A stretch of 43,029 nt of DNA from Escherichia coli (GTDB lineage Bacteria > Pseudomonadota > Gammaproteobacteria > Enterobacterales > Enterobacteriaceae). Below the pieces are notes generated by a model. That model was not told the DNA's origin. It saw only the letters and a list, made by a program, of their open reading frames with translations, and ran no database searches. Location: the NCBI GenBank assembly GCA_033901515.1, contig GCA_033901515.1_4984.1; one strand, given 5' to 3'. The position numbers and the translations under genes are program-made. Numbering within the stretch: the stretch's first letter is position 1; every line of letters begins with the position of its first letter. Positions 650 through 43,029 of the stretch are shown one piece after another.

Positions 650-2659
650 TTACGAGGTCTTCAATATACCAGCAGTACGCAGACTAGCCATGAGGTTGTT
701 CACAGCTACACTAGCTGCGTCTGTACCAGAGCTATTACTTACTGCTGCAGCAGCATTAGGGCCGATTGCAATGAATCCAGCAGGAGCATCAGAGGTGGGT
801 TTAGTAGTACTAGCACGAAGCTGCCCAGTGCTAGACATCCAAACGTAATAACCGTTAAGCCGAATGTAACCATCCCGGTAGTCTCCTCGGAATTCAATAC
901 CACCTTTCTGCACTGGACCAGCCCAGCCGGAACCTGCATCAATTGTACCACGAAGGCTGTTAGGTTCCATGAACGGATTCGTTACGTTGTTGCCCAGTTT
1001 AATGCTCGCACTAACAGTGCTACGGTCACAGCACCCATTCAGGATAACGAAGGAGTCCTGCTGCGCAATTTGCAGGGTGATGGCGCTACTGCTAGTACTA
1101 TCACTTTGAATGCTGATACGGTTGCCTGTTCCCAGGTTATAGATCTCCCCGGTAACTGGGTTGCGCGAGCCACCGCCAAGACGACCTGCAATATTAGCGC
1201 TTGCACCGGTACCTAAACCATCTGTGCGGATACTGAACACGGTACTATCACAGCCCAGAGCTGTGAAGCTCTTAACGTGGCAGTCCTTAACAGTACAGCG
1301 CACCAAATCCCGTAGCTCCATAGGCCAGCGCGGAGTAGTTACATCACACAGAGTAGTGCGGAAGCACCCTTGCAAGAACACCTGCGCTCCCACGATGTCC
1401 TTGAACATACTATCGGCAGCACCATAGAACCACACACCTCGTGTAACTGGGCTACGAGGCGCCTCACAAGTCACACCCTGCAGCTGCATGTCCCGGTTCC
1501 AGGAGTAGTACGGGGTATAAAAAGCATCTACGAACACAGCATAATCACCCTGGGTACCTGTAGCCACAGTGTTCGTAACGGTAAGGCCACGAATCTGTGC
1601 ACCTGGGCAGGACATAAACTTGATCGCGGCATTATCTGTAACCGCTACACTACCACCGGCTTTGATATCCTGGACACGCATACGCCCAAAACAGTAGCTG
1701 TGGTTGATCGTACTGGGCTCCTGTACACCGCGGGCGTAAATACCGGTACTAACCAGTCCGTAAGTAAAGGCATAGATTAGTCGATCAATCTCCATACCCC
1801 GGACTTCTGGGTACGCCGCCTGACGAATCTCTAGACGCTTAATTCGCCCACCACCGTGTACACTAGACCGCCCAATCCAGCCAGTCTTAACCAGCCAAGG
1901 GTTGATGTGTTCATAATACAGTGCCTGGTCTAGTACTAATGCAGTACTGCTTACACTCTCTACTCTCGCAAACTCCATGTACGCAGTGTGGGCCTCAACG
2001 GAATCAGTGCCAGAGATATTCTCAACACGAATTATATCGCCCGCTTTAAACATACCCTCGAAATTGCCAGGTATGCTGTAGGTCCCGGCACTGATTGTAT
2101 CTGACAGTTGCACAGCAGCTTCAAGTCTACGGAACACCGGAGAAGTATATGTGTACCTGGTGCCTGTAGCAATAGTTAGGGAACTACTGCTAGCAGCGGC
2201 TACAACTGCGAAATCCGTACCAATCGCGTTCCCACGCACAGCACTGCCGCCAATGGTATCGTCCAAACTGATAGCGATAACATCACCAGCTCTAAATCCT
2301 GAGAAGTCTCCGAGGAACTCTGTGGTGCCGACTGGAACATCCTCCCATCCTAGGGAGGTTGCTACAGAATAATCTGAGCTAAAGTGTTCACCCTGCAGCA
2401 CGAGCGTAAAGTCCAGAAATGCACCTGGCGCTACCTCTACGTCTACACCGTAATCCAGAGTGATCTTATCACTGGTGTAAGTGCCCTCAGAGAACTTACA
2501 AGGACAGTTGCGGGACTTTGCTGCAGCTAAAGCATCTATGATACACGCAGCGTTAGCACTAGAGGAATTATCAGGGTTATAGCCATACTGCTCTGGGGTA
2601 GTGAATCCTAAAGGATCCAGTACCGGTGCACCTGCTTTTACCATTTTAACTAAAGCCAT
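650..2659 (-). CDS. Second receptor-binding protein / tailspike (candidate depolymerase), terminal gene
   Basis: 669-aa ORF; ATG at 2657-2659 preceded by AAGGTGGGAG. Lacks the T7 gp17-like N-terminal anchor seen in the 6626..8950 ORF. Call rests on size and position after the lysis cassette. Confidence 0.55.
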   Translation of the reverse strand: MALVKMVKAGAPVLDPLGFTTPEQYGYNPDNSSSANAACIIDALAAAKSRNCPCKFSEGTYTSDKITLDYGVDVEVAPGAFLDFTLVLQGEHFSSDYSVATSLGWEDVPVGTTEFLGDFSGFRAGDVIAISLDDTIGGSAVRGNAIGTDFAVVAAASSSSLTIATGTRYTYTSPVFRRLEAAVQLSDTISAGTYSIPGNFEGMFKAGDIIRVENISGTDSVEAHTAYMEFARVESVSSTALVLDQALYYEHINPWLVKTGWIGRSSVHGGGRIKRLEIRQAAYPEVRGMEIDRLIYAFTYGLVSTGIYARGVQEPSTINHSYCFGRMRVQDIKAGGSVAVTDNAAIKFMSCPGAQIRGLTVTNTVATGTQGDYAVFVDAFYTPYYSWNRDMQLQGVTCEAPRSPVTRGVWFYGAADSMFKDIVGAQVFLQGCFRTTLCDVTTPRWPMELRDLVRCTVKDCHVKSFTALGCDSTVFSIRTDGLGTGASANIAGRLGGGSRNPVTGEIYNLGTGNRISIQSDSTSSSAITLQIAQQDSFVILNGCCDRSTVSASIKLGNNVTNPFMEPNSLRGTIDAGSGWAGPVQKGGIEFRGDYRDGYIRLNGYYVWMSSTGQLRASTTKPTSDAPAGFIAIGPNAAAAVSNSSGTDAASVAVNNLMASLRTAGILKTS

Positions 2660-3268
2660 TTAAGCTCCCACCTTATTGAGTGCAGCTACAGCTGCGTTAA
2701 CATCCTTGAACTGGTTCCCAATGGCCTTGCTCTGCCATTGCCTGCGTTCCCACAGACCCCAGCACACTCTATTGCGCTGTCCATTGATGTGCTGGGAGCA
2801 GTCGAAGGTCCAGCGATTACGGCCCTTGTATACCCAACCGGCCCCTGGGGACTTCTGTTGGTACTTGCTAATGTAGCGCCAGTCCAGTACAGCCTTTCCA
2901 GCCGCTACATAATCTAGGTTTTTGAGATGCCGCTTCACGGCACTGCCGTTGAAGCCTGCTACACCTACATTATAAATGAAGTCTACTGACCCAATTAGAG
3001 CCACGTCAGAGAGCTGCATAGGAAGCCCATCAAGGGCCCTTGCATGTGCCCCTGCTGATTCTATCAGTTGCTTCTGACAATCGCTCAGAGAGGCTCTCTG
3101 GCCCATTTTGACGCCTTTAGTCTCCCCATAGCAGATTGTAGGAATGCCTGCACTGTCTTTGTATGCTGTAAGGCTCAAACCTTCATTGTGTTGGACTACC
3201 TCAGTAATAGCTCCGCCGAGCATAGTAGCCCCGGCGAGTGCCGCTATAACCCTAGTCCTTAAACTCAT
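2660..3268 (-). CDS. SAR endolysin (GH24 / T4-lysozyme-type muramidase)
   Basis: 202 aa; N-terminal Gly/Ala-rich signal-anchor-release-type segment RVIAALAGATMLGGAIT; catalytic spacing E-x8-D-x5-T in HNEGLSLTAYKDSAGIPT. Confidence 0.8.
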   Translation of the reverse strand: MSLRTRVIAALAGATMLGGAITEVVQHNEGLSLTAYKDSAGIPTICYGETKGVKMGQRASLSDCQKQLIESAGAHARALDGLPMQLSDVALIGSVDFIYNVGVAGFNGSAVKRHLKNLDYVAAGKAVLDWRYISKYQQKSPGAGWVYKGRNRWTFDCSQHINGQRNRVCWGLWERRQWQSKAIGNQFKDVNAAVAALNKVGA

Positions 3269-3503
3269 ATTTAATCGCCCCCTTACGTGCGTGCTCTTCT
3301 AGGAGCTTGTATGTGCGTCGTTTATAATATGCATTCCACGCCAGGGTTAGCACTGCGCATACCGTCGCAGTGATAAAGCTGATAACACTCCAGTTCCAGC
3401 TCATTAACTCCGCCAACCAGCCTCCTGAGACTGTAGCACCAGTAACAGCCGCCCCTGCCCGGGTAGCGAGGTCTGCCCCAACTCCATCTCCCACTTTAAT
3501 CAT
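3252..3503 (-). CDS. Holin-like small membrane protein (possibly pinholin-type)
   Basis: 83 aa; hydrophobic segment WSVISFITATVCAVLTLAW plus a weakly hydrophobic Gly/Ala-rich N-terminal segment; basic C-terminus; overlaps the spanin stop and endolysin start. Confidence 0.55.
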   Translation of the reverse strand: MIKVGDGVGADLATRAGAAVTGATVSGGWLAELMSWNWSVISFITATVCAVLTLAWNAYYKRRTYKLLEEHARKGAIKYEFKD

Positions 3504-3900
3504 CCTGCTGACCCTTCTTCCTAAACAGCTTACGAATCACCAGAATGGTCACTAGGAAGACCAAAGGAATGCTGGCCCCTGCTAATCCGGCGAGGATAAG
3601 GCTGTAACTATCATTGTTAACCACTTGTAGGCGCTCTGCCTGGATTGTGCCGGTACTAATAGTCTGCACTTGCTTCTTGCTAGAAGTATCCAGGGTACCC
3701 ACGTTAGAATCCTGTACATCAGTTTTGTTGGTGGTGCTGGAGTCCACCTTATTATTTAACCCAAGCATCTGCTTAGTATTCTCAGCACCCACCTGTGCAG
3801 ATACTTCCGGCTTAGAACCAACTAAGCCGGTAAGTGCAGAGGTCGCTGAGCAACCAGTCAGAGTAGCCACGAGTAGTAACCCAGCGACCAGCTTACGCAT
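3496..3900 (-). CDS. Unimolecular spanin (u-spanin)
   Basis: 134 aa; N-terminal lipoprotein signal with lipobox LTGC (MRKLVAGLLLVATLTGC) and C-terminal TM helix LILAGLAGASIPLVFLVTILVI followed by RKLFRKK. Confidence 0.7.
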   Translation of the reverse strand: MRKLVAGLLLVATLTGCSATSALTGLVGSKPEVSAQVGAENTKQMLGLNNKVDSSTTNKTDVQDSNVGTLDTSSKKQVQTISTGTIQAERLQVVNNDSYSLILAGLAGASIPLVFLVTILVIRKLFRKKGQQDD

Positions 3901-8950: not shown

Positions 8951-11900
8951 CTCCGAAGTTATTGATGATAGCTCGCGTAGGTGCGAATTCCTGGATTAAC
9001 GGGACCTGTTTAGTGAAGGTCTGGATATCCATATCCCCAGTAGCCAGGGCTTGCACTGCACCCAGCAGACCAGTGACGTAACCCATAGATGCCAGAGAGT
9101 GGCGCGGTGAGTCCCCAGTGAAGATATCCTGCAGAAGCGAGATACCGCCAATGGCGCTCATACCCATAACTGACTCAGCGACAAGTTTCTGAGTATCGAC
9201 CTCTTTACCGTCCATACCGTGCTTAGCCATAGTTGCTAGAAGCATCAATGGGAACTGGTATGCCATGATGTGTGCAACCCCAATCCACCCAGCATCGTTC
9301 AGCTCTCGGCGCAGAATCTTGTTGGTGGCAGCCAGGGCGAAGCTCTGGTAGCCGACAATTACTTTGCCGATAGGGTTGAACTGGGCGAAGTGTGAGGTCT
9401 CACCGGTACGTACCTGCTGTACCAGGTAGTCCATCATACGCGTACCTACCACCTCAACTTGCATTTGCAGGTCCGGCTGGAACATAGCACCAGGGTTAGC
9501 CTTGTTGGCCGCGATAGCACGGTCCGCAACGTCGCGAGTAAGCCCGAAACGTTCCAGACGCTTAAACGCCTCAGCGTCCCCTTTGAACATCCGCTGGAGC
9601 TCGTCCGCTACAATACCTGAGTTAAGGTTAACCTGCAGTCGATGTACCATACTCATTCCGTTGATGTGACGCGCAGCCTGTCCAATGTTCTGGGTGACGT
9701 TAAACCATGAGGCTTGACGGGTCAGATCCAAGTTATCGTCTGCATAGGTATTCAACCAACGGAAGCGCATCTCCTTCTGAATACTACCACGTAGGATTGC
9801 ATCCAGACGACTAGCCATATCCGGAGTGCGAATAGCTACGGAACCTTCTTTAAACCAAGGCTGCTCACGCATACCACGCAGCACTCGGGACATACCAAAC
9901 TCTTTCAGCGCTAGGGCGATGTCAGTAAGCTGGTACAACCCGGAGTTCTTGAGCATGGTAGCGTTGGCCATGTTACCAGCTGCACGGAGCAGGTCCGGCA
10001 TTTGACCGGCATCGGCTGGTGCCCCACCTAAGATAAAGTCGATGGTGTCATTAACGGTCTTCTCCCACTTACCGGAATCAGCCAGAGCGTGCTTGGACTC
10101 ATTAATCATCGTCTCTAGTGTTTTTAGGTCAGAGACTCCGGCATAAGCCATACCTACACGACCTGACATTCGGTTAGTGTAACCGTGCATAACCTTAGCT
10201 ACATCAGTATCCATCAGATCCTGCATGCGCATAACCTGGCCATCTACGATGTACTCTTTGTCCATGTTGAAGCGGGTACGTTGACGGAGGTTCTTAGCAG
10301 GCGAGGTAGCACCGGATTCTCGGACATTACCTGCCAAGAAACTCTGGATTGCACTCTCGTCTACGCCAGCATTACGCATAACCATGACTACTTCGTCGTT
10401 ACCCATACCGTTGATGAGTTGCTTCCACATAGGACCAGAAGCCGAGGAGCGCCCGTTATAGATACCGTCAACCATCTCCTTAGCAACGCGCTGAACAACC
10501 TCAGGTTCCATAGACGGGTACACATCACGCAATGCCTGGCGGAATAAATCTCGGTAGTTATCCAGGGAGCGACCGTTCGCAATACCTTGGCGCATCTTAT
10601 CGTAGCTGTACTGGCGCGGGAAATAGTAGTCTGATTTAACCAGAGTACCGTCATCCACTAAACCGGCAGCGGTCATGTGATCATGCCACTTACTGGCCCA
10701 ACCAGAGTTGCGATACGCCTCAACAAGCGGAACTAAGTCAGAGTCCGGCAGAGGCACGGGGCGTCCGTTAACCTCAGCACTGTATGCAGAGTCCAGGTAA
10801 CGGCCTAAGCGGTCTTCCAAGTCAGCTCGTGCTGCTCTGAAGTTGCTACGATGGAAGAAGCGGTCCAGGAAACCTACACCCTTATCCTTGAGGGCACCGA
10901 GTATAGCGTCTTCAACTATACTAGCACTAGCATCCATTTCCAAGGTAAGGTTACGCTTAAAGTCCACCACAGACGGTTTACGACCGCCTACAGCAGTAGC
11001 ATCAGATACTAGTAAGCGTGCGAGGTCCTCACTACCCTCTGCGATGTTATCATACAAGGAGAACATAGTGGCGAGCTTACGCTTAGCAGTGTCCATCATA
11101 GCTTGGGCCTGCAAGGCCTCGTTCTTAACTGATGTACCTGCCAAGTCCTGGAAGGACTCACTCCTGAAGCTCTGAGCTTGGTCTGCGTAGTCCTTTGCGG
11201 TCCACTTGACAGCGTCCTCGTACGCGTCCAGAACATCCTCCAGAGCAGACCCCTTGGTGCGAACCCCTAGGGCGTTCATGATGTATTCACCAATCTGGCG
11301 AAGCATGCTTTTACCAGTAGGGGATTTAGTTCTAGAGAGGTACTCTACCCACTCAGGGCTGTCTCCCAGCCCGGCCAGCATTTCGTGCACATCACTTGCA
11401 TAATACTTGAATTTATCACTAAGAGTTGAATCTGCTGCTATTGCAGCGCGCACCTCTTCCAGCTTACTGGCAATTTCCGGATTCTGCTTAATAGCTCTGG
11501 TGGTGGCAGCGTGAATCAGTTCGTGCACTGCTACTCGGCTAGTGTCCGCATCCATAGCACGCAGAGCATCCCCGGCAGTAGTCCAGGTACTTCCGTTCGC
11601 TTTCTTAGGGGCACGTAAAGATACAAAACCCCTATCAGTTGTTGATGCTGGTGAAAACCCGTAGTGGCTACGGTTAGAAGAACCGGCCACCAGTTTAAAA
11701 TCAATGTCCTGTACTGCATCACCCAGGGTGTCCAGGATAGCCTTCTGACCTTTAGATAAGTGTTCAGAGGTCTTGAGGAAACGGACTACATCCTGCGCTT
11801 TCATGTTAACAGCGGCGGTGTTATTTCGGCGAACTTGGATAGGTTCATCCAGTACCTTAGTGAGGATTGTGTCTCCCTCTCCTACTCCTGTAACATTAGC

Positions 11901-15973: not shown

Positions 15974-18352
15974 TTAAATCCTCCGTCTGCGTTGGTTGTA
16001 GCGCAAGATATAAGAGATATCCAGCACGTTAAGCTCCTGGGAGCCCTTAGTATATAAAGTGATTTCAGTAGTATCAGCGTTAGTGCGGCACGGTACTGTG
16101 ATGGTAGCCAAGTCCATACGCAAGGTCTGCCCCAGCGTCAGCTCCTTGGAGTTCATCAAGATACCTGTGAGTTCTCCACTCCAATCAACATCCCGGGGCG
16201 TATCCGTCACGTGCACATCAAAGTGTCCAGAGTTACGTACAGCTACATCCAGACGCAACAAACGCACATGCCCACTACCAACTAGCTTATCATTCTGATC
16301 CCGAAGTACTGGGGTAGTCAGAGTGAATGCGCTATTGTACCTGCGACCCAGGATATACTGCCCATCAGGAACACCCCGCACTACACTGAGCTGGTTTGTA
16401 CCAGCAATATCCTTGAGACCCACCTCAGTAGGCCCCATGGGGCTATTGGCTGGATACGTAAGGATTAAGTCCTCTTTGTATGTATCTGCCCAACCAACCG
16501 GACGCAGCACTGCGGGCACATCTAGCACCCCCCCGCTTACGGTAACTTGCGTCTGCAAGTCCGAGTACGCATCCGTATACTCACTGCCGAGGTTGTACCC
16601 CTCGCGGGGGTCCATAGCTAAAATTAGAAGTTTATTACCGAGACTTGGCCCTTGTAGGTACAGGAACACCTCATCTTCGAGCGCCTGCACGCTCAGGATA
16701 TTATACGGGAATGTCCACTGGTGCCAGGCTGCTTGCACCTTACCGCCATCCTGTCCACCCCACATGAACTCATATACCAGCAGATTCTTGCGCTGGCCAG
16801 ACATACGCACAAACGCCATATTAGTGACGCTGGAATTTTGCATCTGCAGTACCCGCCCAGGGATATACCGAGGGAGATGCACAGTCGCATCCTGCGTAGC
16901 ATATTGTGAGGCAGTGTACGGGGATGGGATAAGCTCTAAAATACCAGCATAGCTACTGTTGCGCTTATTCGGGTAAATCACAGTCTGTCCAGCCATTACT
17001 GGCACTACTCGGCTGTCGCATTCGTAGGTGCTAGTGATGCTAATACTGGCGTTAGTCGGAGTAAGCACTACTGACCCAGGCACTACAGCTTGCATGCTAT
17101 TTGCAAACAGAACCAGGTCTCGGTTGAATTGTATAGCTGTACGGTACACGGAATCCTGGGCAGATGCCGAGCTAATGCTGATACGGTCTGTATCCAGCAG
17201 CGAGGTTACGGTAGAGCGATAGAATCGCTGATACAACCCAGAGGCTGACATATCCACTACACTACCACTAAGCAGCACCAGACGGCCCTGGAATGCTGCT
17301 ATACCTGTAATGTAACCATTCTCAATAAACCCAGGATCCTGATTGTTTTCGTCGTTCCCAGCGAGACGCCCCTCCCATTCACGAGCAATGATATTATCAT
17401 CAGATGCCAGTTCCCGGGGCATGTTAGTAATTTTGGAGATGCTGCCGTAGGCCCCAACCTCAGACCAGGTGCGAGAATTGTAGTCGAACTGATACCACGC
17501 TGTCTCAGCTGAAGCTGTACCCACTTGGCACATCGTACCGTGAGCCTGTGCCGGTAGCTGTGCAGGTAGGTCCTGTTCTTGATGAACCCTACTCTGCCCA
17601 GATGCCATGGCGTAGGTGTCTCCAGCAGACGTACTAACTACGAGATTAGGCAGCCCGGATATATACATATACCCCTCGAAACGGCTTATACTTCCACCAG
17701 CCGCTATAATAGCCGAGCCTATGCCCTGACCATTAGGATCCCCGTCGACTAAGGCCTTAACTACATATGGTGCGGAAATCCACGTTGAAGATTCTTCGTG
17801 GCCTGCGTCAGGGGCATTGTAATAGCCTGATACGGAACCCCCTGTCCAGGATACAGTAACTTCCCAACGCTTCTGGAAAGCTACTGTCTTGATGTAGAAG
17901 AACCCCGTGGTGCTCGGGTCAATTTTACCAGCGTTATCCACGGTTGTATTCGGAGCCATTTCCGTATTCAGGATGTAGGTCAACCCAGCAATACTCGCAG
18001 TCTGGATAGAGGTCTGCCCTACCGTTGTTACGAAGTACGGATCGTTCCCGCTGTTTACAATAGATTTACCGTCCTTGGACAATAACCACCAATTACCGTT
18101 ACTGGTGTTAATCAGCAGGTGCCTACCATCAGCACCACGCTCAACGTATTCTGTATACAGGGAGTCTAGGTCCGGATTGTCAATACTACTCTCCCATACA
18201 ATCTCTGCTGGAGGTCGTCTACGTATTCCGGATACCGGGTCACTGAGCATGTTCAGTTGCGCCCCAAGTTGCCCGGGCTGGCGCTCTCTTGGAATCTGCT
18301 GAGACACACCCTGGAGCAGGCTCTGAATAGTACCTTCTAGTGATTGCGCCAT
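15974..18352 (-). CDS. Tail tubular protein B (gp12-like)
   Basis: 792 aa (T7 gp12 is 794 aa); follows the tail tubular A ORF. Confidence 0.75.
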   Translation of the reverse strand: MAQSLEGTIQSLLQGVSQQIPRERQPGQLGAQLNMLSDPVSGIRRRPPAEIVWESSIDNPDLDSLYTEYVERGADGRHLLINTSNGNWWLLSKDGKSIVNSGNDPYFVTTVGQTSIQTASIAGLTYILNTEMAPNTTVDNAGKIDPSTTGFFYIKTVAFQKRWEVTVSWTGGSVSGYYNAPDAGHEESSTWISAPYVVKALVDGDPNGQGIGSAIIAAGGSISRFEGYMYISGLPNLVVSTSAGDTYAMASGQSRVHQEQDLPAQLPAQAHGTMCQVGTASAETAWYQFDYNSRTWSEVGAYGSISKITNMPRELASDDNIIAREWEGRLAGNDENNQDPGFIENGYITGIAAFQGRLVLLSGSVVDMSASGLYQRFYRSTVTSLLDTDRISISSASAQDSVYRTAIQFNRDLVLFANSMQAVVPGSVVLTPTNASISITSTYECDSRVVPVMAGQTVIYPNKRNSSYAGILELIPSPYTASQYATQDATVHLPRYIPGRVLQMQNSSVTNMAFVRMSGQRKNLLVYEFMWGGQDGGKVQAAWHQWTFPYNILSVQALEDEVFLYLQGPSLGNKLLILAMDPREGYNLGSEYTDAYSDLQTQVTVSGGVLDVPAVLRPVGWADTYKEDLILTYPANSPMGPTEVGLKDIAGTNQLSVVRGVPDGQYILGRRYNSAFTLTTPVLRDQNDKLVGSGHVRLLRLDVAVRNSGHFDVHVTDTPRDVDWSGELTGILMNSKELTLGQTLRMDLATITVPCRTNADTTEITLYTKGSQELNVLDISYILRYNQRRRRI

Positions 18353-23453: not shown

Positions 23454-23475
23454 TCCTACTCCTGTAACATTAAAT
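23454..23475 (-). promoter_or_regulatory. Conserved 17-bp motif also present in the terminal repeat; candidate phage promoter or end-related site
   Basis: Plus 23454-23470 tcctactcctgtaacat is identical to plus 16-32 and 42968-42984; minus strand reads ATGTTACAGGAGTAGGA immediately before the ATG at 23453. Confidence 0.4.
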
Positions 23476-23476
23476 T

Positions 23477-23815
23477 TTAGTAGGGTGCCCAAACCGGTAT
23501 ACCGGCCTTCCTGCACAGTTCAACCATACCGGCGGTGCCTCTTCCTCCAGGAAAGGCGACACAGTATTCTGGAAAGGCTAGGGATATCATAGCGGCGTTC
23601 CTGCGCATACCTGCAGATTTACCTTGTGCATCCCACAGGGCAGGCATACGCAGAACAAAAATACCAGATTCCAAGGCCCACCTATCTGCCAGTGCGTCAG
23701 CTCCCCTGGCATTCCCGTGTATCACTACAGATGGTTTGTTGGGTAGCATATCCATTGCGGTCTTTAGCGCTAAGTAGTCTGTGTAATCGCGCCCGCCTGT
23801 TACTAGTACTCGCAT
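23477..23815 (-). CDS. SLOG/LOG-like Rossmann-fold nucleotide-binding protein (DUF2493-like)
   Basis: 112 aa; VLVTGGRDYTDY, GNARGADALADRWA and FPGGRGTAGMVE resemble SLOG superfamily signatures (LOG PGGxGTxxE-like). From memory, not verified by search. Confidence 0.45.
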   Translation of the reverse strand: MRVLVTGGRDYTDYLALKTAMDMLPNKPSVVIHGNARGADALADRWALESGIFVLRMPALWDAQGKSAGMRRNAAMISLAFPEYCVAFPGGRGTAGMVELCRKAGIPVWAPY

Positions 23816-23824
23816 ACAATACTC

Positions 23825-26293
23825 TCAGCAGAAGAAGAACGGAGATTCTAGCACTTGCCGGATGTCCAGAGTACCAACCGCAGGCATATCCAGGTCCGTC
23901 AGGTCTGCCCCCGCTGCAGCAGCAGCTCTAGTAATATCTCCCAGAAGGTCGTGCTCCTCATACAGCTTCACAAACTGTTCGCGGATGTGTCGGTGCAGAG
24001 CATCAACATCGGATGCATGAGTAGCCAAGGAGTCGTGAATAGGCACAATATCAAGTCCCTCCGCCGCGCAGAGTACCATCATCAAGTGCGTACTATCCAG
24101 ACTGTGCACAAAGTTCGGAGCGATCCCAGAGGCTGCCTTGCGCTTATTACACGTTTTAAAATCACGGTTATGCACCAGTACAGCGGATAGGTTCATACAG
24201 TCAATACGGACACGTACCTCTTCCCTCTGAGAGTACCGGTTCATCACCAGCCCGCCCAGCGGGGTCTTCCACTGCAGGTGCTGGCTAGCAGGTACGCGCC
24301 TAGCTAGATTCTGCAGATACCCCATAGCTGCGGCAGCTGCCGGGTTAGCTTCCTCAATAGCGCTACGCATTCTAGGGGCAAGGTAGCAGGATAAGTTCCA
24401 GAGACTGTGCGTGTCTGTTCCTTCATACCCCTCTTCACAGGCCCCTGCAAAGATGTAGTCGCTGCAGCTGCGCACCGTGGCGCTGTAGAAGTAGGTCATG
24501 CTAGGACGCTTGGTCATGCTTCGCGTGATTTCGTTCTCTCTCCAGTATGTGCTCTGGATAACGAAATCCTCTTTGTCCAGGTCCAGTATCACCTTCTCGT
24601 CCGTACGGCGCTTCACGTCCATATACAGGTCCGCTTTCTTGTCGTTACCCTCCCAGTACAGGTTAGTCAGGCGCCCGCCTACAGGGTCTCTCAGGAGCGC
24701 TGAGAGGTGCTGACCACCTGAGTTTGTAGCATCCATAGCAACTGGGATTCGGCTAATATACTCTTCTGGGCATCCAGAACGTACCGCATTAACCAAGTCA
24801 ATAGCGGCTGCCAGGAAGCACCAAGGGCTGTCGGCGGAGGTAAAAGCAGGGCAATCAAAAGGAGAATCCGCGAGCTGCTCAATCTCTGCAAAGTTTGCAT
24901 CAACCCAAGCTGCACGGTCTTCGAATAGGGTTTTGTCATAACCAAAGCAGGTAGCGACGTGCACTTTAAGCCAGAATAACCCCCTCTCTCCCAGAGGTTT
25001 ACCTCGTCCGAATTCAAGAAGTGCCTTCTGCAAATCAGAACCTTGTGGGTGCAGAGAGGACTTGAAGTACAGCCGGTACCGCCAATCCACACAGGTTGGG
25101 AAGTACAAGGCTTTCTCATCTTTGAATTCCTCTGCCATCTCTAGCGTGGTCAATAGGCTACGTAGTTGCGACACACGTTTACGGTCGGCGCTGTACCATA
25201 AGGACATACGCGTCTTCCACTCTCCGAAGCGGTCGAGTTCCTCCTCGGTGTAATTCTCTTTTGGTACACCATCTAAGTACCACTCAGGTTTCGGCTCTGG
25301 CACTGAGCGCGGCATACCTACACCAATACCTAAGGCCCGTGCTTCTTGTACCAGTTCCAGTACTCGCTTATTAATGCGATAAGGAGTTTCCTGCGCCTTA
25401 TTAAGTGCCTTCTTGATACCGTCCGCAGACTTAAATGCTTCCGCTACTTCACGCAGTCTGGCGCGGTCAATGTGCGAGTTGTGGTACGTCCCACGGTTAT
25501 CGATTGGGGTGAGGTATCCACCATCCCACAGTGTAGTATGCGACACCGGCGGTACCAGCATCGGAGGCTTCATAGTTACAGTATCAGCAGATTCCACTAA
25601 CTGCTGAAATGCTTCCATAACATTATCTGCGGGATAGAGCATACTCAAGTTCCCGCTACCAGTCTTCCACTGGAACAGCCCTGTCTCAAACACTGCGGAA
25701 CACAGCAGACGTCCCACAGAAATATTCTGAGCGTTGGTCCAAGGCTCATGCCCATAGTGCACGTTCTCAGCGCTGGCGCGGAGCGTACGCAGAATGTGCG
25801 TAGGCGACTTAGTACGGCGCTCAGTGAGGTATTCATATACCCGGTCCATATACGCTGGGGCAACATTACGTAGCTGCAATGCCAGCAGCTCTGATTGTAC
25901 GTTCCTACCCAGTGCAGACATTACCGCCTGAGCAGTCTGGCGGCGACTAGCGGACTCGCCAGGGGCAACACTGAACGCCTCAAACATTGTGCACAGGCTC
26001 AGGGTAGTCAGGACATCCAAGGGAACTAAGCGCAAGAACCGGCGGTACTTTCCGCCAATACCTGGGGCTTTGGTGTTTCGCATTTCATCAATAGCTGTAG
26101 AGGCCACGTCATACGCAGAGGTGAGCATGCGCTGAGTCATTGGCAGGTTCATAATCCCGCCGTTCTGCAGAGCATCAGTAATTAACTTACGAGCACGCTC
26201 AATACCTCGAATTTTATAGGTCTCTTCAAGCTCCAGCTGGCGCTGCACCAGTGCTTCCTCTGGTACTACAACCGTATTCAGGGCGCTAATCAT
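23825..26293 (-). CDS. Single-subunit DNA-dependent RNA polymerase (T7 RNAP family)
   Basis: 822 aa; PVAMDATNSGGQHLSALLRD aligns with T7 RNAP [20 protein letters not shown] (catalytic Asp); IVPIHDSLATH aligns with T7 HDSFGT (second catalytic Asp); RBS AAGGAG. Confidence 0.9.
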   Translation of the reverse strand: MISALNTVVVPEEALVQRQLELEETYKIRGIERARKLITDALQNGGIMNLPMTQRMLTSAYDVASTAIDEMRNTKAPGIGGKYRRFLRLVPLDVLTTLSLCTMFEAFSVAPGESASRRQTAQAVMSALGRNVQSELLALQLRNVAPAYMDRVYEYLTERRTKSPTHILRTLRASAENVHYGHEPWTNAQNISVGRLLCSAVFETGLFQWKTGSGNLSMLYPADNVMEAFQQLVESADTVTMKPPMLVPPVSHTTLWDGGYLTPIDNRGTYHNSHIDRARLREVAEAFKSADGIKKALNKAQETPYRINKRVLELVQEARALGIGVGMPRSVPEPKPEWYLDGVPKENYTEEELDRFGEWKTRMSLWYSADRKRVSQLRSLLTTLEMAEEFKDEKALYFPTCVDWRYRLYFKSSLHPQGSDLQKALLEFGRGKPLGERGLFWLKVHVATCFGYDKTLFEDRAAWVDANFAEIEQLADSPFDCPAFTSADSPWCFLAAAIDLVNAVRSGCPEEYISRIPVAMDATNSGGQHLSALLRDPVGGRLTNLYWEGNDKKADLYMDVKRRTDEKVILDLDKEDFVIQSTYWRENEITRSMTKRPSMTYFYSATVRSCSDYIFAGACEEGYEGTDTHSLWNLSCYLAPRMRSAIEEANPAAAAAMGYLQNLARRVPASQHLQWKTPLGGLVMNRYSQREEVRVRIDCMNLSAVLVHNRDFKTCNKRKAASGIAPNFVHSLDSTHLMMVLCAAEGLDIVPIHDSLATHASDVDALHRHIREQFVKLYEEHDLLGDITRAAAAAGADLTDLDMPAVGTLDIRQVLESPFFFC

Positions 26294-26671: not shown

Positions 26672-27090
26672 TTAATAGTCTCCCGCGCTTTACGTCGAGC
26701 TCTGGCCTTGCGTGCCTTGAGCTTCTGTGCCTGTGCCTGTTCTTCCGGCGTCTTATATGTATAGTATAGCATATCCGTCGGTTCCCGGTCTAGGTAGTCG
26801 GCAACCCTACGCAGAGATTCAGCAATAGCCCTAGAAGATTGCATGCTACCAACAATCCAGCGCCCAGCGGCAGATGCCACCTTGCCCTCCCCTCCATTGC
26901 ACGAGCGATGAAGAGCACCCCGAATACGCCCAGTAATATGACAGTGGTCAACGACAACAGAATCACCAGTCACCCCCTTGATCGTGAAGTCCAAAGGTTT
27001 ACCACAAAGGAGGCATATACCTCCCTGGTCTTTGGCAAGTTTAATAGCCACAGAACGAATCTGTGCCCGTGTAATCTTTCTCAAGGTCAC
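26668..27090 (-). CDS. Endonuclease VII (T4 gp49-like junction-resolving enzyme)
   Basis: 140 aa; CLLCGKPL ... DHCHITGRIRGALHRSCNGGEG parallels T4 endo VII CLICQREL ... DHDHELNG..VRGLLCNLCNAAEG; apparent GTG start. Confidence 0.75.
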   Translation of the reverse strand: MTLRKITRAQIRSVAIKLAKDQGGICLLCGKPLDFTIKGVTGDSVVVDHCHITGRIRGALHRSCNGGEGKVASAAGRWIVGSMQSSRAIAESLRRVADYLDREPTDMLYYTYKTPEEQAQAQKLKARKARARRKARETIK

Positions 27091-27284
27091 AGTTCAATCT
27101 CCCCAACTAAATCCAACATAGCATTGTCGTGAATGAGAGAATCCAAATGCTCAACTGTTCTTCGATGTGTTTTGGGTGCTCGTTCACGCAACGCGTCCAG
27201 AATAGTTTCCAGTTCATCATGTTTCCCCTCGTAGTATAACTCAATCGCCCGCAGGCTCATTTCCTTCGCAGACATCTTCGCCAT
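27087..27284 (-). CDS. Hypothetical protein (about 65 aa)
   Basis: I prefer ATG 27282-27284 (MAKMSAKEM...); overlaps the 3' end of the exonuclease gene by about 44 nt. Confidence 0.35.
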   Translation of the reverse strand: MAKMSAKEMSLRAIELYYEGKHDELETILDALRERAPKTHRRTVEHLDSLIHDNAMLDLVGEIEL

Positions 27285-28209
27285 TGTCTGGGTGCTCCTG
27301 TATCCACTGTATGTGCTGTTTATGGTACTCGTGCAGCGACTGCACCCAGTCACGTAGACTGGGAGTAGTCAACAGTGACATCAGATACTGATAGGCAGAA
27401 TCTGATTGGGAGCGCCGCAGGAACAGGCATTCAGCCTCTGCGAGTACATCTTGGTTGTTTCTAGCATAAGCCGCTACAACGAACTCTGCGGCGTCTTGCT
27501 CTGAGGTAATAGGGTAGATAGCATCAAAGGCTGTTCGCTTGCCACAGAGCTTCCCATCAAGCAAGGTGATACCTTTGACGTTATCGGCATCGTCTCCAGC
27601 TAGCATCTGCCACCAGAAGAACTTCAACCCATGCGCTCGTACTGGCATGGCCTGGGTGTCGTCCCACTCAATCCAGCCGAAGGGATCCTTCAGTGCAGGC
27701 CACACTGTACCGGTTGGAATATCAAATCTAGCCATGGGGCTGAGCCAGGAATCTTTATCCTGTGACATCAGAATACCACGTTCTCCGAAAGTGTATGAAT
27801 CCATTACGAACAAGTCATCCGCCTCGAAGAAGTCACTACTAACTACCTGGATACCTTGCTCATAGTACTGGTCTGGATTCTCAATTAAGTGCCGCTTCAA
27901 TGGCGCCTTTAGAGGTAGCTCCTGCCGATTAATGCGCTGCCCCTGGTAGGGCTTAGCCGTAGGGAGGTGCCATCGCAAGCACTTGGCGCATCCCGTAGGT
28001 GTTAGATACGCCACTGCTTCTGAGCAACCAACCAGGAACATATCCTCAAGCACTAGTTGATAGAAGCGGCGTATTGCGGTATCCAGACGTTTCACTGTAG
28101 CAGCGGCTTTGTACACGCAAAAGTCCGCGTCGTACAACAGAATCTTCCCAGCGTTCTGCGGAGCTAACTGCTCTGGGAGCTGGGACAAGTCAACCCCGTT
28201 GATAATCAT
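27241..28209 (-). CDS. 5'-3' exonuclease (T7 gp6 / FEN-like)
   Basis: 322 aa; KILLYDADFCVYKA vs T7 gp6 GILVMDGDWLVFQA; SQDKD vs SCDKD; GDDADN vs GDITDG; RBS GGGGG. Confidence 0.7.
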   Translation of the reverse strand: MIINGVDLSQLPEQLAPQNAGKILLYDADFCVYKAAATVKRLDTAIRRFYQLVLEDMFLVGCSEAVAYLTPTGCAKCLRWHLPTAKPYQGQRINRQELPLKAPLKRHLIENPDQYYEQGIQVVSSDFFEADDLFVMDSYTFGERGILMSQDKDSWLSPMARFDIPTGTVWPALKDPFGWIEWDDTQAMPVRAHGLKFFWWQMLAGDDADNVKGITLLDGKLCGKRTAFDAIYPITSEQDAAEFVVAAYARNNQDVLAEAECLFLRRSQSDSAYQYLMSLLTTPSLRDWVQSLHEYHKQHIQWIQEHPDNGEDVCEGNEPAGD

Positions 28210-28367
28210 CAGACCCCCGTAACCTTCCTGGCTAACTTACGCGCCCAGTCAATCCAATGCCCCGGCCACTTTGCTTCTGTGAGCTTCTCTCCAAGATAGC
28301 ACACGCCAGCCAGGGGAAGCAGGGGAAGAATTAGGACTATGTAAATAACCCAAGTCACATATCGCAT
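28209..28367 (-). CDS. Small membrane protein (52 aa), below the ORF-track threshold
   Basis: ATG 28365-28367 overlaps the upstream stop (TAATG), RBS GGAGGGG; stop TGA overlaps the exonuclease ATG; translation MRYVTWVIYIVLILPLLPLAGVCYLGEKLTEAKWPGHWIDWARKLARKVTGV has one TM helix and a basic tail. Confidence 0.45.
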   Translation of the reverse strand: MRYVTWVIYIVLILPLLPLAGVCYLGEKLTEAKWPGHWIDWARKLARKVTGV

Positions 28368-28741
28368 TATTTCCCCTCCAGCTCAGACAGCACCAGCACA
28401 GTGCCAAGCATGTCACCAATCACTTCTGGAGTACGCAGGCTCTGGTCTACGTCGTAGATACAGGAACCAATCTCTGCCAGGCCAACACTGAGTGTGCCGA
28501 CTACGCGGATAACCGCTAGATCGTCCCCCTTCAACTTGTCGGCATGTGCTGCCAGGTCGTTGTGCTCCTTGAAGGCAGTAGCGGCCAGCTCCAGGTCCAT
28601 ACCGTACAAGGCGGCCAGTTCGTCTAGGGCATCATAGATGTTGTCCAGACTAATATCGTGTATACCACACGCTGCTGCATCATACACTGCGGCACCAACC
28701 GTAATAGCCAGGTTCTTATATGCTTCTAATACTTTATCCAT
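28367..28741 (-). CDS. Hypothetical acidic protein (about 124 aa)
   Basis: I prefer ATG 28739-28741 (tool start is TTG 28744); RBS GAGGAG. Confidence 0.5.
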   Translation of the reverse strand: MDKVLEAYKNLAITVGAAVYDAAACGIHDISLDNIYDALDELAALYGMDLELAATAFKEHNDLAAHADKLKGDDLAVIRVVGTLSVGLAEIGSCIYDVDQSLRTPEVIGDMLGTVLVLSELEGK

Positions 28742-28760
28742 CAATTATATACTCCTCTAA

Positions 28761-28776
28761 GGCCCCAGGTGGGGCC
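28761..28776 (-). other. GC hairpin (GGCCCC-ACCU-GGGGCC on minus-strand RNA)
   Basis: Perfect 6-bp GC stem downstream of the 28800..29633 gene; no U-tract. Confidence 0.4.
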
Positions 28777-28799
28777 GTATTAGTTTAGGTTATGGTTGA

Positions 28800-29633
28800 T
28801 TAGGCTTGAGGTGCAGCGGGCGCTGCTGGCGCTACAGGAGCTACAGGGGCCGCTGGAGCCACTGGTGCAGCCGGGGCTGCCGGAGCTGCCGGAGCAGCAG
28901 GAGCAGCAGGGGCCGCTGGGGTCTGCATAGACTGAGGACTCGGAACCGAACCGGCATTCAGCATAATATCCAACGCACTGCCTGGGAAGTCAACAGCCTT
29001 GTACATGTCTTCCTGAATCCAGTTTTTACTCTTACCATCGTCCTTGGTACCTTCGATATATAAGCTATCCCAGGTTTCTTTGGTCGGATTGTTCCACAGG
29101 AACAGCTTAATCTCGGAGGCATCCAGAGCCGGCATCTTAATAGGCTCACCGGTGTTCGGGTCGAACTTCGGAATCGGACGGATTGCCGCGAGGTCTACAA
29201 TGTTAGACTTCTTAACTGCTGCGCTGGTGTGCTCATCTACTGGGAATACAAATGCTTGTCCCAGTCGCTGTGCAGCGTGTTTAATGCTGCCATCATAGTT
29301 GAGCTTGTCGAAGAATTTCTTGAAGCCCGCACGCTCAAAGTTGCTGATGGTCATCGGATACGGACGGATACGTTTCACCTCACCGTTAGGGCCATACACT
29401 ACAATCCCGATACGCACATTCGCTGCTGCAGGCTTACCAGTAGGCTTACCGCCCTTGGTCGGCAGGCGCTTACCAATTTCCACATACTCGGTGAAGTAGC
29501 CATAGTACTCACCCTTCGGCAGCAGTACATCCTCGTACGCACCGCCCTGGGCGGTCTCGGTCATATCAACTTCTTGTGTTTTAATCGCAGCAGCAACCAG
29601 GGAGTTCAGAGTGTCCAGTGCATTCATAGTCAT
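28800..29633 (-). CDS. Hypothetical protein with Pro/Ala-repeat C-terminal tail
   Basis: 277 aa; C-terminal about 45 aa is PAAPAAPAAPAAPAAPVAPAAPVAPVAPAAPAAPQA, encoded by imperfect 9-bp tandem repeats at about 28803-28920. Confidence 0.6.
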   Translation of the reverse strand: MTMNALDTLNSLVAAAIKTQEVDMTETAQGGAYEDVLLPKGEYYGYFTEYVEIGKRLPTKGGKPTGKPAAANVRIGIVVYGPNGEVKRIRPYPMTISNFERAGFKKFFDKLNYDGSIKHAAQRLGQAFVFPVDEHTSAAVKKSNIVDLAAIRPIPKFDPNTGEPIKMPALDASEIKLFLWNNPTKETWDSLYIEGTKDDGKSKNWIQEDMYKAVDFPGSALDIMLNAGSVPSPQSMQTPAAPAAPAAPAAPAAPAAPVAPAAPVAPVAPAAPAAPQA

Positions 29634-29684: not shown

Positions 29685-30665
29685 TTAACGGTTACGTCCA
29701 ACCCACCTGCCGGAATCATCGAGCAGCATCGGAATTAACTGCGGACAACCCTCTGTGATTACCAGTACGCCTAGGATTGGTTTCTTACGGGTCAGCCTAC
29801 CGTATGCAAAGGCCATACTCTTACGGTCAATCAAACACCCCGCGTATGCGCCGAAATACAACGCTGTAGAAGATGCTGCATATTGCACTTCGAATCTGCC
29901 ATGCTCATGCCCCAAGACCAAAGAAGTGCGCTCATGCGATGCATTAAGCATGAAGTCACCAGATACCTGATGCTGGAAGCGGACCGGTCCGAGCGGTGTA
30001 TTGAGCACCCAAGCATCGGCCCACGACCAGGACGGGGCACCGTGCTCAGGGAACAAGATATCGCGGTACTTCTTAATAAATTGCACCGGCAAACCGTGAG
30101 CCTTGGCGCGACGATATACCAGACTCCCGTGATTGGAATCGCAAACCAATAGATTCGGGAAGAGTTCATGCAGTTGCTCCAGTACTAACTTAGCCTTCTC
30201 CAGTTCCACCCCAGCACTATCTAGGTTAGGATCAGAGTCATGAAAGCTGATGGCATGTCCGTCAGTCTCATCACCTACCTGTACCACCATGTCCGGACAA
30301 TATTCATCCCGCACACTTTTCAGGAAGTCCATGGCATCTACGTGAGTATAAGGAGCATGCAAATCACCCACAACAAGAATACGGTGACAGGTACTAGGAA
30401 CGCTAGTATTTCCAATGTCGTCGGTTGGGCTCGGCTGAATAAGCTTACGAGCTTCCTGTAAACCACGGTTAGCATTCGCTTTACTCCCCTTGTTGTCCAT
30501 GAAGATGCTGCGCCAGTAACGCACAAGCTGGCGGGACACGATTACGTCTCCCTTGCGAAATTTGTTATTGTACGCAATAGCTGCATCAGTGTTATTGAGG
30601 AAGCTACCAAGAATTTGTTGGTGCTCTTCTTTGGTCCACAGTTTGATTAGACTAACACTTGCCAT
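29685..30665 (-). CDS. Calcineurin-like metallophosphoesterase
   Basis: 326 aa; VVGDLHAPYTH (D-x-H), VVQVGDETDGHA (GDxxD), VCDSNHGS (NH) in the canonical order of the family. Confidence 0.7.
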   Translation of the reverse strand: MASVSLIKLWTKEEHQQILGSFLNNTDAAIAYNNKFRKGDVIVSRQLVRYWRSIFMDNKGSKANANRGLQEARKLIQPSPTDDIGNTSVPSTCHRILVVGDLHAPYTHVDAMDFLKSVRDEYCPDMVVQVGDETDGHAISFHDSDPNLDSAGVELEKAKLVLEQLHELFPNLLVCDSNHGSLVYRRAKAHGLPVQFIKKYRDILFPEHGAPSWSWADAWVLNTPLGPVRFQHQVSGDFMLNASHERTSLVLGHEHGRFEVQYAASSTALYFGAYAGCLIDRKSMAFAYGRLTRKKPILGVLVITEGCPQLIPMLLDDSGRWVGRNR

Positions 30666-30667
30666 TA

Positions 30668-31096
30668 TTAGGCCTCCTTAATAATTTGACTGACGCGAGA
30701 TTGTACTACACCGTATTTCGCAGCAAGCACGTACTGATTAGCGTGTTTAGAACGAGGAACATACTCCCGGCGAATCTGCTCTACAGTAGACTTGGAAATC
30801 TTATGAGCTTCTCGGCCCCTATCTACCTTATCTTGCATGTTGTCTGCCCTGCTGCCCACCAGAAGATGCTCGGGATTAATACAACGGGGATTGTCACATG
30901 AGTGTCTAATCACCTGCCCGTCTATATCCGCATAGGTTATACCGTGGTGGCGGACGTAAACCACTCGATGATATAGGCGCATCTTTCCGTCACGTTTAAC
31001 TAACGCATACCCTCCTTTTAGAAGGCTCCGGCTTTTGCCGTGGTCTATACATTCTGACACTGCATGCCTCTCTTGTGTTGTTCCTACTCGTATCAC
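30668..31096 (-). CDS. HNH endonuclease (free-standing, homing-type)
   Basis: GGYALVKRDGKMRLYHRVVYVRHHG ... VIRHSCDNPRCINPEHLLVGSRADN is an HNH_3-like pattern, with a C-terminal HTH-like segment. Start uncertain: GTG 31096 or GTG 31060 (RBS GAGAGG). Confidence 0.75.
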   Translation of the reverse strand: MIRVGTTQERHAVSECIDHGKSRSLLKGGYALVKRDGKMRLYHRVVYVRHHGITYADIDGQVIRHSCDNPRCINPEHLLVGSRADNMQDKVDRGREAHKISKSTVEQIRREYVPRSKHANQYVLAAKYGVVQSRVSQIIKEA

Positions 31097-42952: not shown

Positions 42953-43029
42953 AGTTCCCTAAAACCCTCCTACTCCTGTAACATCATTTCTTAATAGCTT
43001 TCGAATGAAAGTAAAGGTGAAGGGATAGC
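42953..43029. repeat. Terminal direct repeat, right copy
   Basis: Exact 77-bp copy of 1..77. Confidence 0.9.

Follow-up and report, generated by a model that had tools for sequence, protein, structure and literature searches.

A 52-codon gene coupled to the exonuclease gene of a KP34-like phage genome and its predicted small membrane protein with a hypervariable N-terminal module

The stretch of DNA analysed here (the window; 43,029 nucleotides, contig GCA_033901515.1_4984.1 of the Escherichia coli assembly GCA_033901515.1) is a complete KP34-like phage genome (Drulisvirus, Autographiviridae) in reverse orientation. We regard it as the whole genome because a 77-nt exact repeat stands at both ends (positions 1-77 equal 42953-43029). 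With nucleotide identities of 86-95%, the nearest isolates are Klebsiella phage Hope, Shigella phage SFN6B and two Escherichia phages, ZH5 and Minorna. Our subject is a 52-codon open reading frame (ORF) on the minus strand, directly 5' of a 5'-3' exonuclease gene, that runs from an ATG at 28367-28365 to a TGA at 28211-28209 and has no in-frame start further upstream. A first-pass annotation of the window had pointed to this ORF on the strength of a GGAGGGG ribosome-binding site and of TAATG and TGATG couplings to its neighbours, all of which we confirmed on the minus strand. The locus comprises the following features, with lengths in amino acids (aa) and the basis of each in brackets.

28209..28367, minus strand: coding sequence of the predicted small membrane protein, 52 codons, MRYVTWVIYIVLILPLLPLAGVCYLGEKLTEAKWPGHWIDWARKLARKVTGV (ORF listing, phrog_7652 match, frame conservation)
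28373..28379, minus strand: Shine-Dalgarno sequence GGAGGGG, 5 nt before the ATG and within the 3' end of the upstream gene (sequence)
28365..28369, minus strand: TAATG overlap of the upstream 125-aa gene and the small ORF (the TAA at 28369-28367 shares its last A with the ATG)
28207..28211, minus strand: TGATG overlap of the small ORF and the exonuclease gene (the TGA shares its A with the exonuclease ATG at 28209-28207)
28214..28220, minus strand: ACGGGGG, codons T50-G51, doubling as the exonuclease ribosome-binding site (nucleotide-level constraint)
28253..28380, minus strand: divergence island, about 13 nt 5' of the ATG plus the first ~38 codons (DNA identity to SFN6B)
28293..28358, minus strand: predicted proline-kinked transmembrane (TM) helix, codons 4-25, VTWVIYIVLILPLLPLAGVCYL (Kyte-Doolittle, invariant columns, AF2)
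28218..28268, minus strand: predicted Trp-rich basic amphipathic helix, codons 34-50, WPGHWIDWARKLARKVT (helical moment, helical wheel, AF2)
28367..28744, minus strand: upstream 125-aa gene, translationally coupled, likely start ATG at 28741 (phrog_6607, unknown function; homologue of fHe-Kpn01 g29)
27241..28209, minus strand: downstream 5'-3' exonuclease gene, 322 aa, translationally coupled (phrog_107, E=1e-68)

The 7-kb neighbourhood holds 76 ORFs of at least 30 aa, and one ORF of 56 aa overlaps the small ORF in another frame. The length of an ORF is no proof of a gene, and the case therefore rests on comparison with relatives. We gathered loci by using the exonuclease as the anchor, not the small ORF, which gave 73 IMG/VR loci, 67 of them at Drulisvirus-level similarity. 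An intact ORF of 52-54 codons is present in all 67, and in 60 its stop codon overlaps the exonuclease start. In the other seven, an inserted HNH endonuclease gene sits precisely where the small ORF would otherwise meet the exonuclease gene, and each of these loci keeps the small ORF intact. A reading frame broken in close relatives, which the first-pass annotation had named as the outcome that would count against the gene, was thus found in none of the loci. Among 59 distinct nucleotide sequences (encoding 38 distinct proteins), frame 0 is open in all 59 and each of the other forward frames is stopped in all 59. The ratio of nonsynonymous to synonymous substitution rates (dN/dS) has a pairwise median of 0.18, with values of 0.15-0.34 for the window against single relatives, and the commonest protein is encoded by 17 distinct DNA sequences with 24 purely synonymous differences. 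We conclude that 28367 to 28209 on the minus strand is almost certainly a real protein-coding gene.

The HNH genes themselves (loci L038, L042, L043, L044, L063, L066 and L067, at about positions 2000-2520 of each locus) encode homing endonucleases of 144 or 168 aa. In L038 and L044 the HNH ORF opens with the first 11 exonuclease codons (MIINGVDLSQL...), resembling a duplicated exonuclease start.

The signals for translation are conserved in the same loci. Nearly all of the 67 relatives have a GGAG-type Shine-Dalgarno sequence at the same spacing, and the stop and start codons at the exonuclease junction read TAATG in 46 relatives, TGATG in 20 and TAGTG in one. The slot of the small ORF is constant, with a gene of ~125 aa before it and the 5'-3' exonuclease gene after it, and its overlaps with both neighbours measure 1-8 nt. 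The exonuclease of the window is 98.8% identical to that of SFN6B. The T50 codon is ACG in 58 of the 59 distinct sequences and the G51 codon is GGG in every one, with zero synonymous variation. This invariance arises because the two codons form the exonuclease ribosome-binding site, that is, from a constraint at the level of the DNA. An engineered deletion of the small gene must spare its 3' end, since the ribosome-binding site of the exonuclease sits there.

The only PHROG match of the small protein is phrog_7652 ('unknown function'), at E=4.3e-23 and over the full length, its residues 1-52 aligning with positions 2-53 of a 53-position profile. It also occupies the slot of that family and carries its motifs, PLxP (L-x-x-P-L-x-P in the TM helix) and WxxWA (in the tail), so it is a new mosaic allele of the catalogued PHROG 7652 family and not a newly found gene. 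The description of the gene as unannotated, which was correct for the ORF track of the first-pass annotation, does not hold for GenBank, where homologues are annotated in most related genomes. They appear as hypothetical proteins in SFN6B (AVD98978.1), Hope (CDS0009), Minorna (CPT_Minorna_031, QBP07082.1), SU503_27 (YP_009199911.1) and fHe-Kpn01 (Gp30, QFG06577.1), and in most of the 166 phage records recovered by tblastn; the Minorna record includes an annotated ribosome-binding site. The gene had also been placed between two DNA-metabolism genes. This is right for the downstream exonuclease and does not extend to the upstream 125-aa protein, which belongs to a family without assigned function. 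No allele among 50,697 phage records is more than 71% identical to that of the window; a metagenomic protein, P0001, shares 98% identity with it.

The family is small and restricted to Drulisvirus and a few close relatives. A profile search of a word-indexed set of 5.8 billion proteins recovered 81 proteins of 49-60 aa, and the long contigs that carry them are mostly ~43-45 kb. An exhaustive HMMER scan of 1.84 billion representatives gave eight matches at E<=1e-3, of which six are Drulisvirus-type small proteins or fragments of such proteins. Apart from the family itself the scan yielded two artefacts of fusion or truncation and a low-complexity false positive, P0088. Four of the eight matches (P0082-P0085, 51-55 aa) are divergent family members with the same motifs. 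Two of them, P0085 and P0083, occupy the same slot, in which a ~127-aa gene (89 aa in L083, where the contig end cuts it), the small ORF and the exonuclease gene overlap. The small gene is absent from Pantoea phage LIMElight, the phiKMV-like phage phipa2, Vibrio phage OWB, Pectobacterium phage PPWS1 and Acinetobacter phage Petty, all related phages with homologous exonucleases, and in LIMElight the 125-aa homologue is coupled straight to the exonuclease gene. Searches of general resources gave sub-threshold TM-type noise in Pfam (DUF7535 and DUF412, E ~0.05), noise in NCBIfam (E=0.026, 14 bits against a cut-off of 259), no family at E<=1 among the PADLOC-DB defence models, nothing beyond photosystem small TM subunits (E >=0.08) in a sequence-profile search of PDB, and no match in a Foldseek comparison of the AF2 model with BFVD.

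The product is very likely a membrane protein. Its best 19-aa Kyte-Doolittle window scores 2.47 (residues 7-25), the range across 42 family proteins being 1.9-2.5, and the tail holds 6 K/R against 3 D/E, in agreement with the single TM helix and basic tail proposed at first pass. On the Hessa scale (position-independent) the TM segment of the window protein has a dG of +0.5 kcal/mol, the value of the phage's own holin TM domain. In an alignment of 34 sequences including the window, L12, P15, W38, W41 and A42 are invariant and Y9, P18, K28 and K44 are kept in at least 90%. The AF2 model (mean pLDDT 81) predicts helices at residues 2-13, 16-31 and 34-50, with a break at 14-15 beside P15. Lysine and arginine are more numerous on the C-terminal than on the N-terminal side of the TM segment in 41 of the 42 proteins (mean 6.5 against 1.5), which by the positive-inside rule points to an N-out/C-in orientation. 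Thus, we anticipate that the product is probably a bitopic inner-membrane protein with its tail in the cytoplasm. Residues 34-50 have a helical moment of 0.65-0.83, and on a helical wheel W34, W38, W41, L45 and V49 fall on one face with R43, K44, R47 and K48 opposite. This Trp-rich cationic helix of ~17 residues would lie at the cytoplasmic membrane interface or be docked on a partner.

Two other kinds of envelope protein were considered and rejected. A lipoprotein of the Llp/Cor type would have a lipobox ([LVI][ASTVI][GAS]C); in the 59 sequences the residue before the Cys position is L (57) or V (2) and never G, A or S, and the Cys is replaced by V in seven and by S in one, and by other residues in more distant members. 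A SAR-domain protein would have a weakly hydrophobic core rich in Gly, Ala and Ser, and the core here is rich in Leu, Ile and Val. A conserved AxA-like signal peptidase I motif after the hydrophobic core is not visible in the family alignments.

What is new here is that the first ~38 codons of the gene are hypervariable inside a conserved backbone. Between the window and SFN6B, DNA identity is 27-57% in the divergence island (to about nt 115 of the ORF) against 87-100% on both flanks, and across the ~4.4 kb that are colinear with SFN6B the island is the only dip caused by substitutions, two other dips being indels. At the protein level the two phages share 97% identity in the upstream gene, 45% in the small ORF and 99% in the exonuclease. 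The same order holds for 465 locus pairs, with mean identities of 83.2%, 65.6% and 95.1% and minima of 74%, 26% and 90% for the upstream gene, the small ORF and the exonuclease, respectively; the 125-aa neighbour shares 83-99% identity with each of its best 120 homologues. The small proteins fall into discrete allele classes, 'MLYVS...' (KP34 type), 'MRNFF...' (SFN6B type) and 'MRYV...' (window type), each internally conserved, and their N- and C-terminal modules occur in several combinations (for instance P0005, P0012 and P0024). The window protein itself looks mosaic, with an MRYV-type N-terminal and TM module joined to an SFN6B-type '...WARKLxKKVTGV' C-terminus and breakpoints at the start codon and about codon 38. 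Judged from these alignments, the island is an allele-class module that appears to be exchanged by recombination.

Shigella phage Buco, whose exonuclease is 66% identical, has a protein of 65 aa in the same slot (L059 2307-2504; MK562503.1 15887-16081) that is annotated as hypothetical or gp27. Like the small ORF, its gene overlaps the 125-aa homologue and the exonuclease start (ATGA), and in the protein a basic N-terminus is followed by a single TM helix (Kyte-Doolittle 2.14) and then by a tail that is amphipathic and basic (8 K/R against 3 D/E). In contrast to the small protein, its TM helix is rich in Gly and Ala, and PLxP and WxxWA are missing. Homology between the two was rejected (hhalign probability 0.08%, no tblastn match), and among the 50,697 phage records the Buco protein occurs in Buco only.

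A strong promoter of the KP34 RNA polymerase, T(A/G)ATGTTACAGGAGTA, has been defined experimentally (PMC6834552). The minus strand of the window has exact copies of it at 19-34, 11883-11898, 23457-23472 and 42971-42986, and none occurs elsewhere in the window (0.04 expected by chance); the sites at 19-34 and 42971-42986 are one repeat-borne site counted at each end. The copy 3' of the RNA polymerase gene lies ~350 nt past the stop codon, after a 112-aa ORF (23477-23815), unlike the reported arrangement in KP34, where the promoter is immediately behind that gene. From the left end of the genome to the RNA polymerase gene (23825-26293) there is no KP34-type phage promoter, and the small ORF is part of the early/middle block upstream of that gene. 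A private promoter or terminator near the small ORF was not detected, as the sigma-70 pattern occurs 6 times against 8.5 expected and the terminator pattern 6 times against 6.0 (shuffled sequences).

The lysis genes form a complete cassette at 2660-3900:

3496-3900: u-spanin, lysis cassette (phrog_1804)
3252-3503: holin, 83 aa, lysis cassette (phrog_20)
2660-3268: endolysin (SAR), lysis cassette (phrog_7)

Their order, spanin, holin and endolysin, is the one given for the genus (PMC4411677; PMC7291057). Since this cassette is complete and lies elsewhere in the genome, the small gene is not needed as a holin. Beyond the endolysin comes the last gene (650-2659, minus strand), in the place where KP34-type phages have their tail spike or depolymerase; its 669-aa product has no PHROG match at E<=1e-5 and may be a divergent receptor-binding protein or depolymerase.

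A homologue of the small protein has been included in a published screen, in which Spruit et al. 2020 (Viruses 12:544, PMC7291057) studied 22 hypothetical proteins of Drulisvirus fHe-Kpn01. The homologue, g30 (16815-16976, 53 aa, 50% identical over 46 residues), is flanked by g29 (123 aa) and by g31, the exonuclease gene. Liquid chromatography with tandem mass spectrometry (LC-MS/MS) of purified virions did not reveal Gp30. When cloned in E. coli DH10B, g30 had a relative transformant count of 1.03 +/- 0.21 (0.82 and 1.24 times that of a non-toxic control), and it was not classed as a candidate toxic gene (PMC7291057). The test for toxicity in the host that the first-pass annotation had suggested had thus been carried out earlier on this homologue, in a crude assay and with a non-toxic outcome. 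Our literature search for studies of small membrane proteins in Drulisvirus returned nothing specific; the phrase in PMC9902359 refers to holins in general only.

We propose for the small protein an accessory role that is neither lytic nor structural. As in other bitopic regulators of ~50 aa, the kinked TM helix and the interfacial helix would bind a membrane-embedded partner and would form no lesions. This partner would come from the host or from competing phages; the discrete, internally conserved and recombining alleles of the N-terminal two-thirds in a backbone that is 90-99% identical, together with the Buco analogue, argue for such a partner. Candidate roles are superinfection exclusion at the inner membrane and the neutralising or evading of a membrane-associated host function (counter-defence or host takeover). 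Superinfection exclusion and host-membrane targeting, two of the three roles that the first-pass annotation had named, are plausible and fit the allelic hypervariability. A conflict-type function of this sort, that of a non-lytic membrane factor directed at the host or at a competitor, is a tentative assignment, held at somewhat less than even odds. For the account as a whole, in which a real gene encodes a bitopic membrane protein that acts as a conflict-type factor, we estimate a probability of about 0.45.

Known systems offer analogies to this proposal. E. coli AcrZ is a 49-aa protein of N-out/C-in orientation whose proline-kinked TM helix docks on AcrB. The small protein resembles it in its ~50 aa, its near-zero extracytoplasmic N-terminus, its single predicted proline-kinked TM helix, its short cytoplasmic amphipathic tail and its apparent lack of toxicity. 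Unlike AcrZ it is phage-encoded and has no named partner, so the likeness may extend to mechanism and not to membership; exhaustive hidden Markov model (HMM), Pfam and NCBIfam searches gave no sequence relationship to bitopic regulators of ~50 aa such as AcrZ. Among phage exclusion proteins, T4 Imm has two TM segments and Sp a periplasmic domain, and T5 Llp and Cor are lipoproteins. These are small envelope proteins of lytic phages, made before the late genes, non-essential, variable and lineage-restricted, and in such traits the small protein may be comparable. It differs from them in having one TM helix and no lipobox, its Cys not being invariant, and neither the profile search of 1.84 billion representatives nor PHROG gave homology to T4 Imm or Sp.

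Several observations weigh against this account. The tight coupling to the exonuclease gene fits a role in DNA metabolism equally well. The TM helix is marginal on the Hessa scale (+0.5 to +1.4 kcal/mol), a score that results from the two prolines at its centre, and the topology derives from the positive-inside rule alone, the first 15 residues of the tail carrying only 1-4 K/R. The divergence could partly reflect relaxed constraint in place of diversification driven by conflict, since one hydrophobic residue can stand in for another in a TM segment. Positive selection between allele classes cannot be shown, because dS is saturated there (1.1-1.9). The toxicity figure comes from a crude ligation-mix assay in E. 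coli with unverified expression, and from a 50%-identical homologue of another allele class. Pfam, NCBIfam, PADLOC, PDB sequences and BFVD structures provide no link to a function for the family, and our literature search turned up no transcriptome, ribosome profile or infected-cell proteome of a Drulisvirus.

Four alternatives compete with the account as a whole or with parts of it. In the opposite orientation, N-in/C-out, an alternative for the topology alone, the hydrophobic segment would be a signal-anchor or a cleaved signal and the cationic Trp-rich helix would lie in the periplasm. From the outer side of the inner membrane it might, for instance, stop the DNA or the ejection proteins of an incoming phage, as T4 Imm and Sp do, or modulate the release of the SAR endolysin. 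The 1-4 basic residues right before the hydrophobic core are like a signal n-region, the first part of the tail is poor in K/R and in the window protein net acidic, and the helical wheel of the tail is that of the cationic Trp-rich amphipathic helices that are typical binders of membrane surfaces. The total K+R bias towards the C side favours C-in, however, and neither a conserved AxA-type cleavage motif nor a lipobox is present, so we consider this orientation unlikely. Less credible still is a membrane tether for phage DNA metabolism, in which the TM helix would be the anchor and the basic Trp-rich tail would bind DNA, the exonuclease or the 125-aa protein, so that, much as with phi29 p16.7, the inner membrane would be the place where replication or recombination intermediates are kept. 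The gene lies inside a DNA-metabolism block, and its coupling at either end favours production of the protein in step with the exonuclease and in a fixed ratio to it; the tail is basic, family members having net charges of 0 to +5, the C-terminal module and the exonuclease allele segregate together, the position is kept even in distant members, and a non-toxic, non-virion protein is compatible with such a role. A fixed interface between two phage proteins would, however, hardly be expected where the exonuclease is 90-99% conserved and the small protein falls to 26% identity and has swapped alleles. The five phages listed above (LIMElight, phipa2, OWB, PPWS1 and Petty) have homologous exonucleases without the small gene, the HNH gene parts the small ORF from the exonuclease gene in seven relatives with no disruption, and a tail of ~27 aa is very short for a DNA-binding module; phi29 p16.7 has about 130 aa and a folded C-terminal domain.

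A function in lysis timing, the third role that had been named at first pass, now appears the least likely of those three and we consider it highly improbable. In that case the small protein would be an antiholin or an auxiliary holin-like protein that binds the TM domain of a pinholin or tunes the release of the SAR endolysin. Single-TM-domain holins and pinholins (the phage's own 83-aa holin, phrog_20, and T7 gp17.5) are likewise small, with one hydrophobic helix and a charged C-terminal tail. These traits are generic and not diagnostic; size, TM segment and charged C-terminus were the criteria by which Eriksson et al. recognised the 83-aa holin (PMC4411677). The TM segment of the small protein is as hydrophobic as that of the holin of this phage (+0.5 kcal/mol), and non-toxicity would fit an antiholin, whereas a holin proper is expected to be toxic when cloned and Gp30 was non-toxic in the crude assay. 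The gene, however, is ~25 kb away from the complete lysis cassette and belongs to the pre-RNA-polymerase block instead of the late region, and comparison with the phage's own holin gave an hhalign probability of 0.07%, with no match to a PHROG of the 'lysis' category. The lysis proteins of KP34-like phages are >95% similar (Eriksson et al., PMC4411677), against identities down to 26% for the small protein. Identity as a holin or pinholin was rejected, as both the position in a lysis cassette and similarity to a holin family are missing. Lastly, the ORF could be a spacer whose peptide has no function and whose translation merely brings ribosomes that leave the 125-aa gene to the start of the exonuclease gene, the ribosome-binding site of which it contains. 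In favour of this, the last codons, ACG GGG, are fixed in 58-59 of the 59 sequences as the exonuclease Shine-Dalgarno sequence, the stop/start overlaps are universal, and LIMElight couples the 125-aa homologue to the exonuclease without any small ORF. Against it stand a median dN/dS of 0.18, one protein from 17 DNA variants, and a TM character, PLxP and W38/W41/A42 kept across alleles that are <50% identical in nucleotides. The ORF is also intact in the seven loci uncoupled by HNH genes, and Buco keeps a different TM protein in the slot. We therefore regard a mere spacer as extremely improbable.

Returning to the conflict-type factor, a more specific and rather doubtful extension is that the slot 5' of the exonuclease gene is a recombining 'conflict cassette' of interchangeable bitopic membrane proteins of ~50-65 aa. 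Its contents would be at least three deeply diverged PHROG-7652 allele classes and the unrelated Buco protein, each acting against a particular inner-membrane factor of the host or against particular competing phages. If this were true, the allele class would be a strain-level determinant of host range or of phage-phage exclusion, within a conserved DNA-metabolism operon. Few phages are used more widely than Drulisviruses as candidates for therapy against Klebsiella, and this small family is present in essentially every member examined. Were the TM module specific for a host or competitor, it may help to explain narrow or unpredictable host ranges and interference within cocktails, beyond the receptor-binding depolymerases, and a phage example would be added to the class of ~50-aa membrane regulators. 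If the protein is merely a tolerated accessory, the value lies in annotation, as the length cut-offs of gene callers miss the small gene, and in the caution for engineering.

The neighbouring genes show further differences from relatives. At 28745-28799 (minus strand) the window is without a gene of 84-92 aa that relatives have between the 277-aa single-strand DNA-binding protein (SSB)-like gene and the 125-aa gene. This gene is present in SFN6B (L001 1227-1505) and as g28 in fHe-Kpn01, where its product was found to be virion-associated by LC-MS/MS (PMC7291057). In its stead the window has a 55-nt spacer with a perfect GC-rich palindromic hairpin, GGCCCCACCTGGGGCC, at 28761-28776, whose coding strand lacks a T-tract. 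The 277-aa protein (phrog_862, unknown function), which the phage Hope record labels a single-strand DNA-binding protein, has a long C-terminal stretch of low complexity, PAAPAAPAAP...PVAPAAP (28800-28920, minus strand). On the other side of the locus, an 88-aa ORF (27087-27353, minus strand) overlaps the 3' end of the exonuclease gene. Its label in SFN6B, F19 and other phages is 'beta-galactosidase', apparently an annotation error passed from record to record. Between this ORF and endonuclease VII, at window positions 27080-27107, SFN6B carries ~170-200 nt extra. Colinearity of the window with SFN6B ends upstream of ~29716, which is another mosaic boundary of the replication module; genes for a 326-aa metallophosphoesterase-like protein and a 142-aa HNH-like protein lie there, at 29685-31096.

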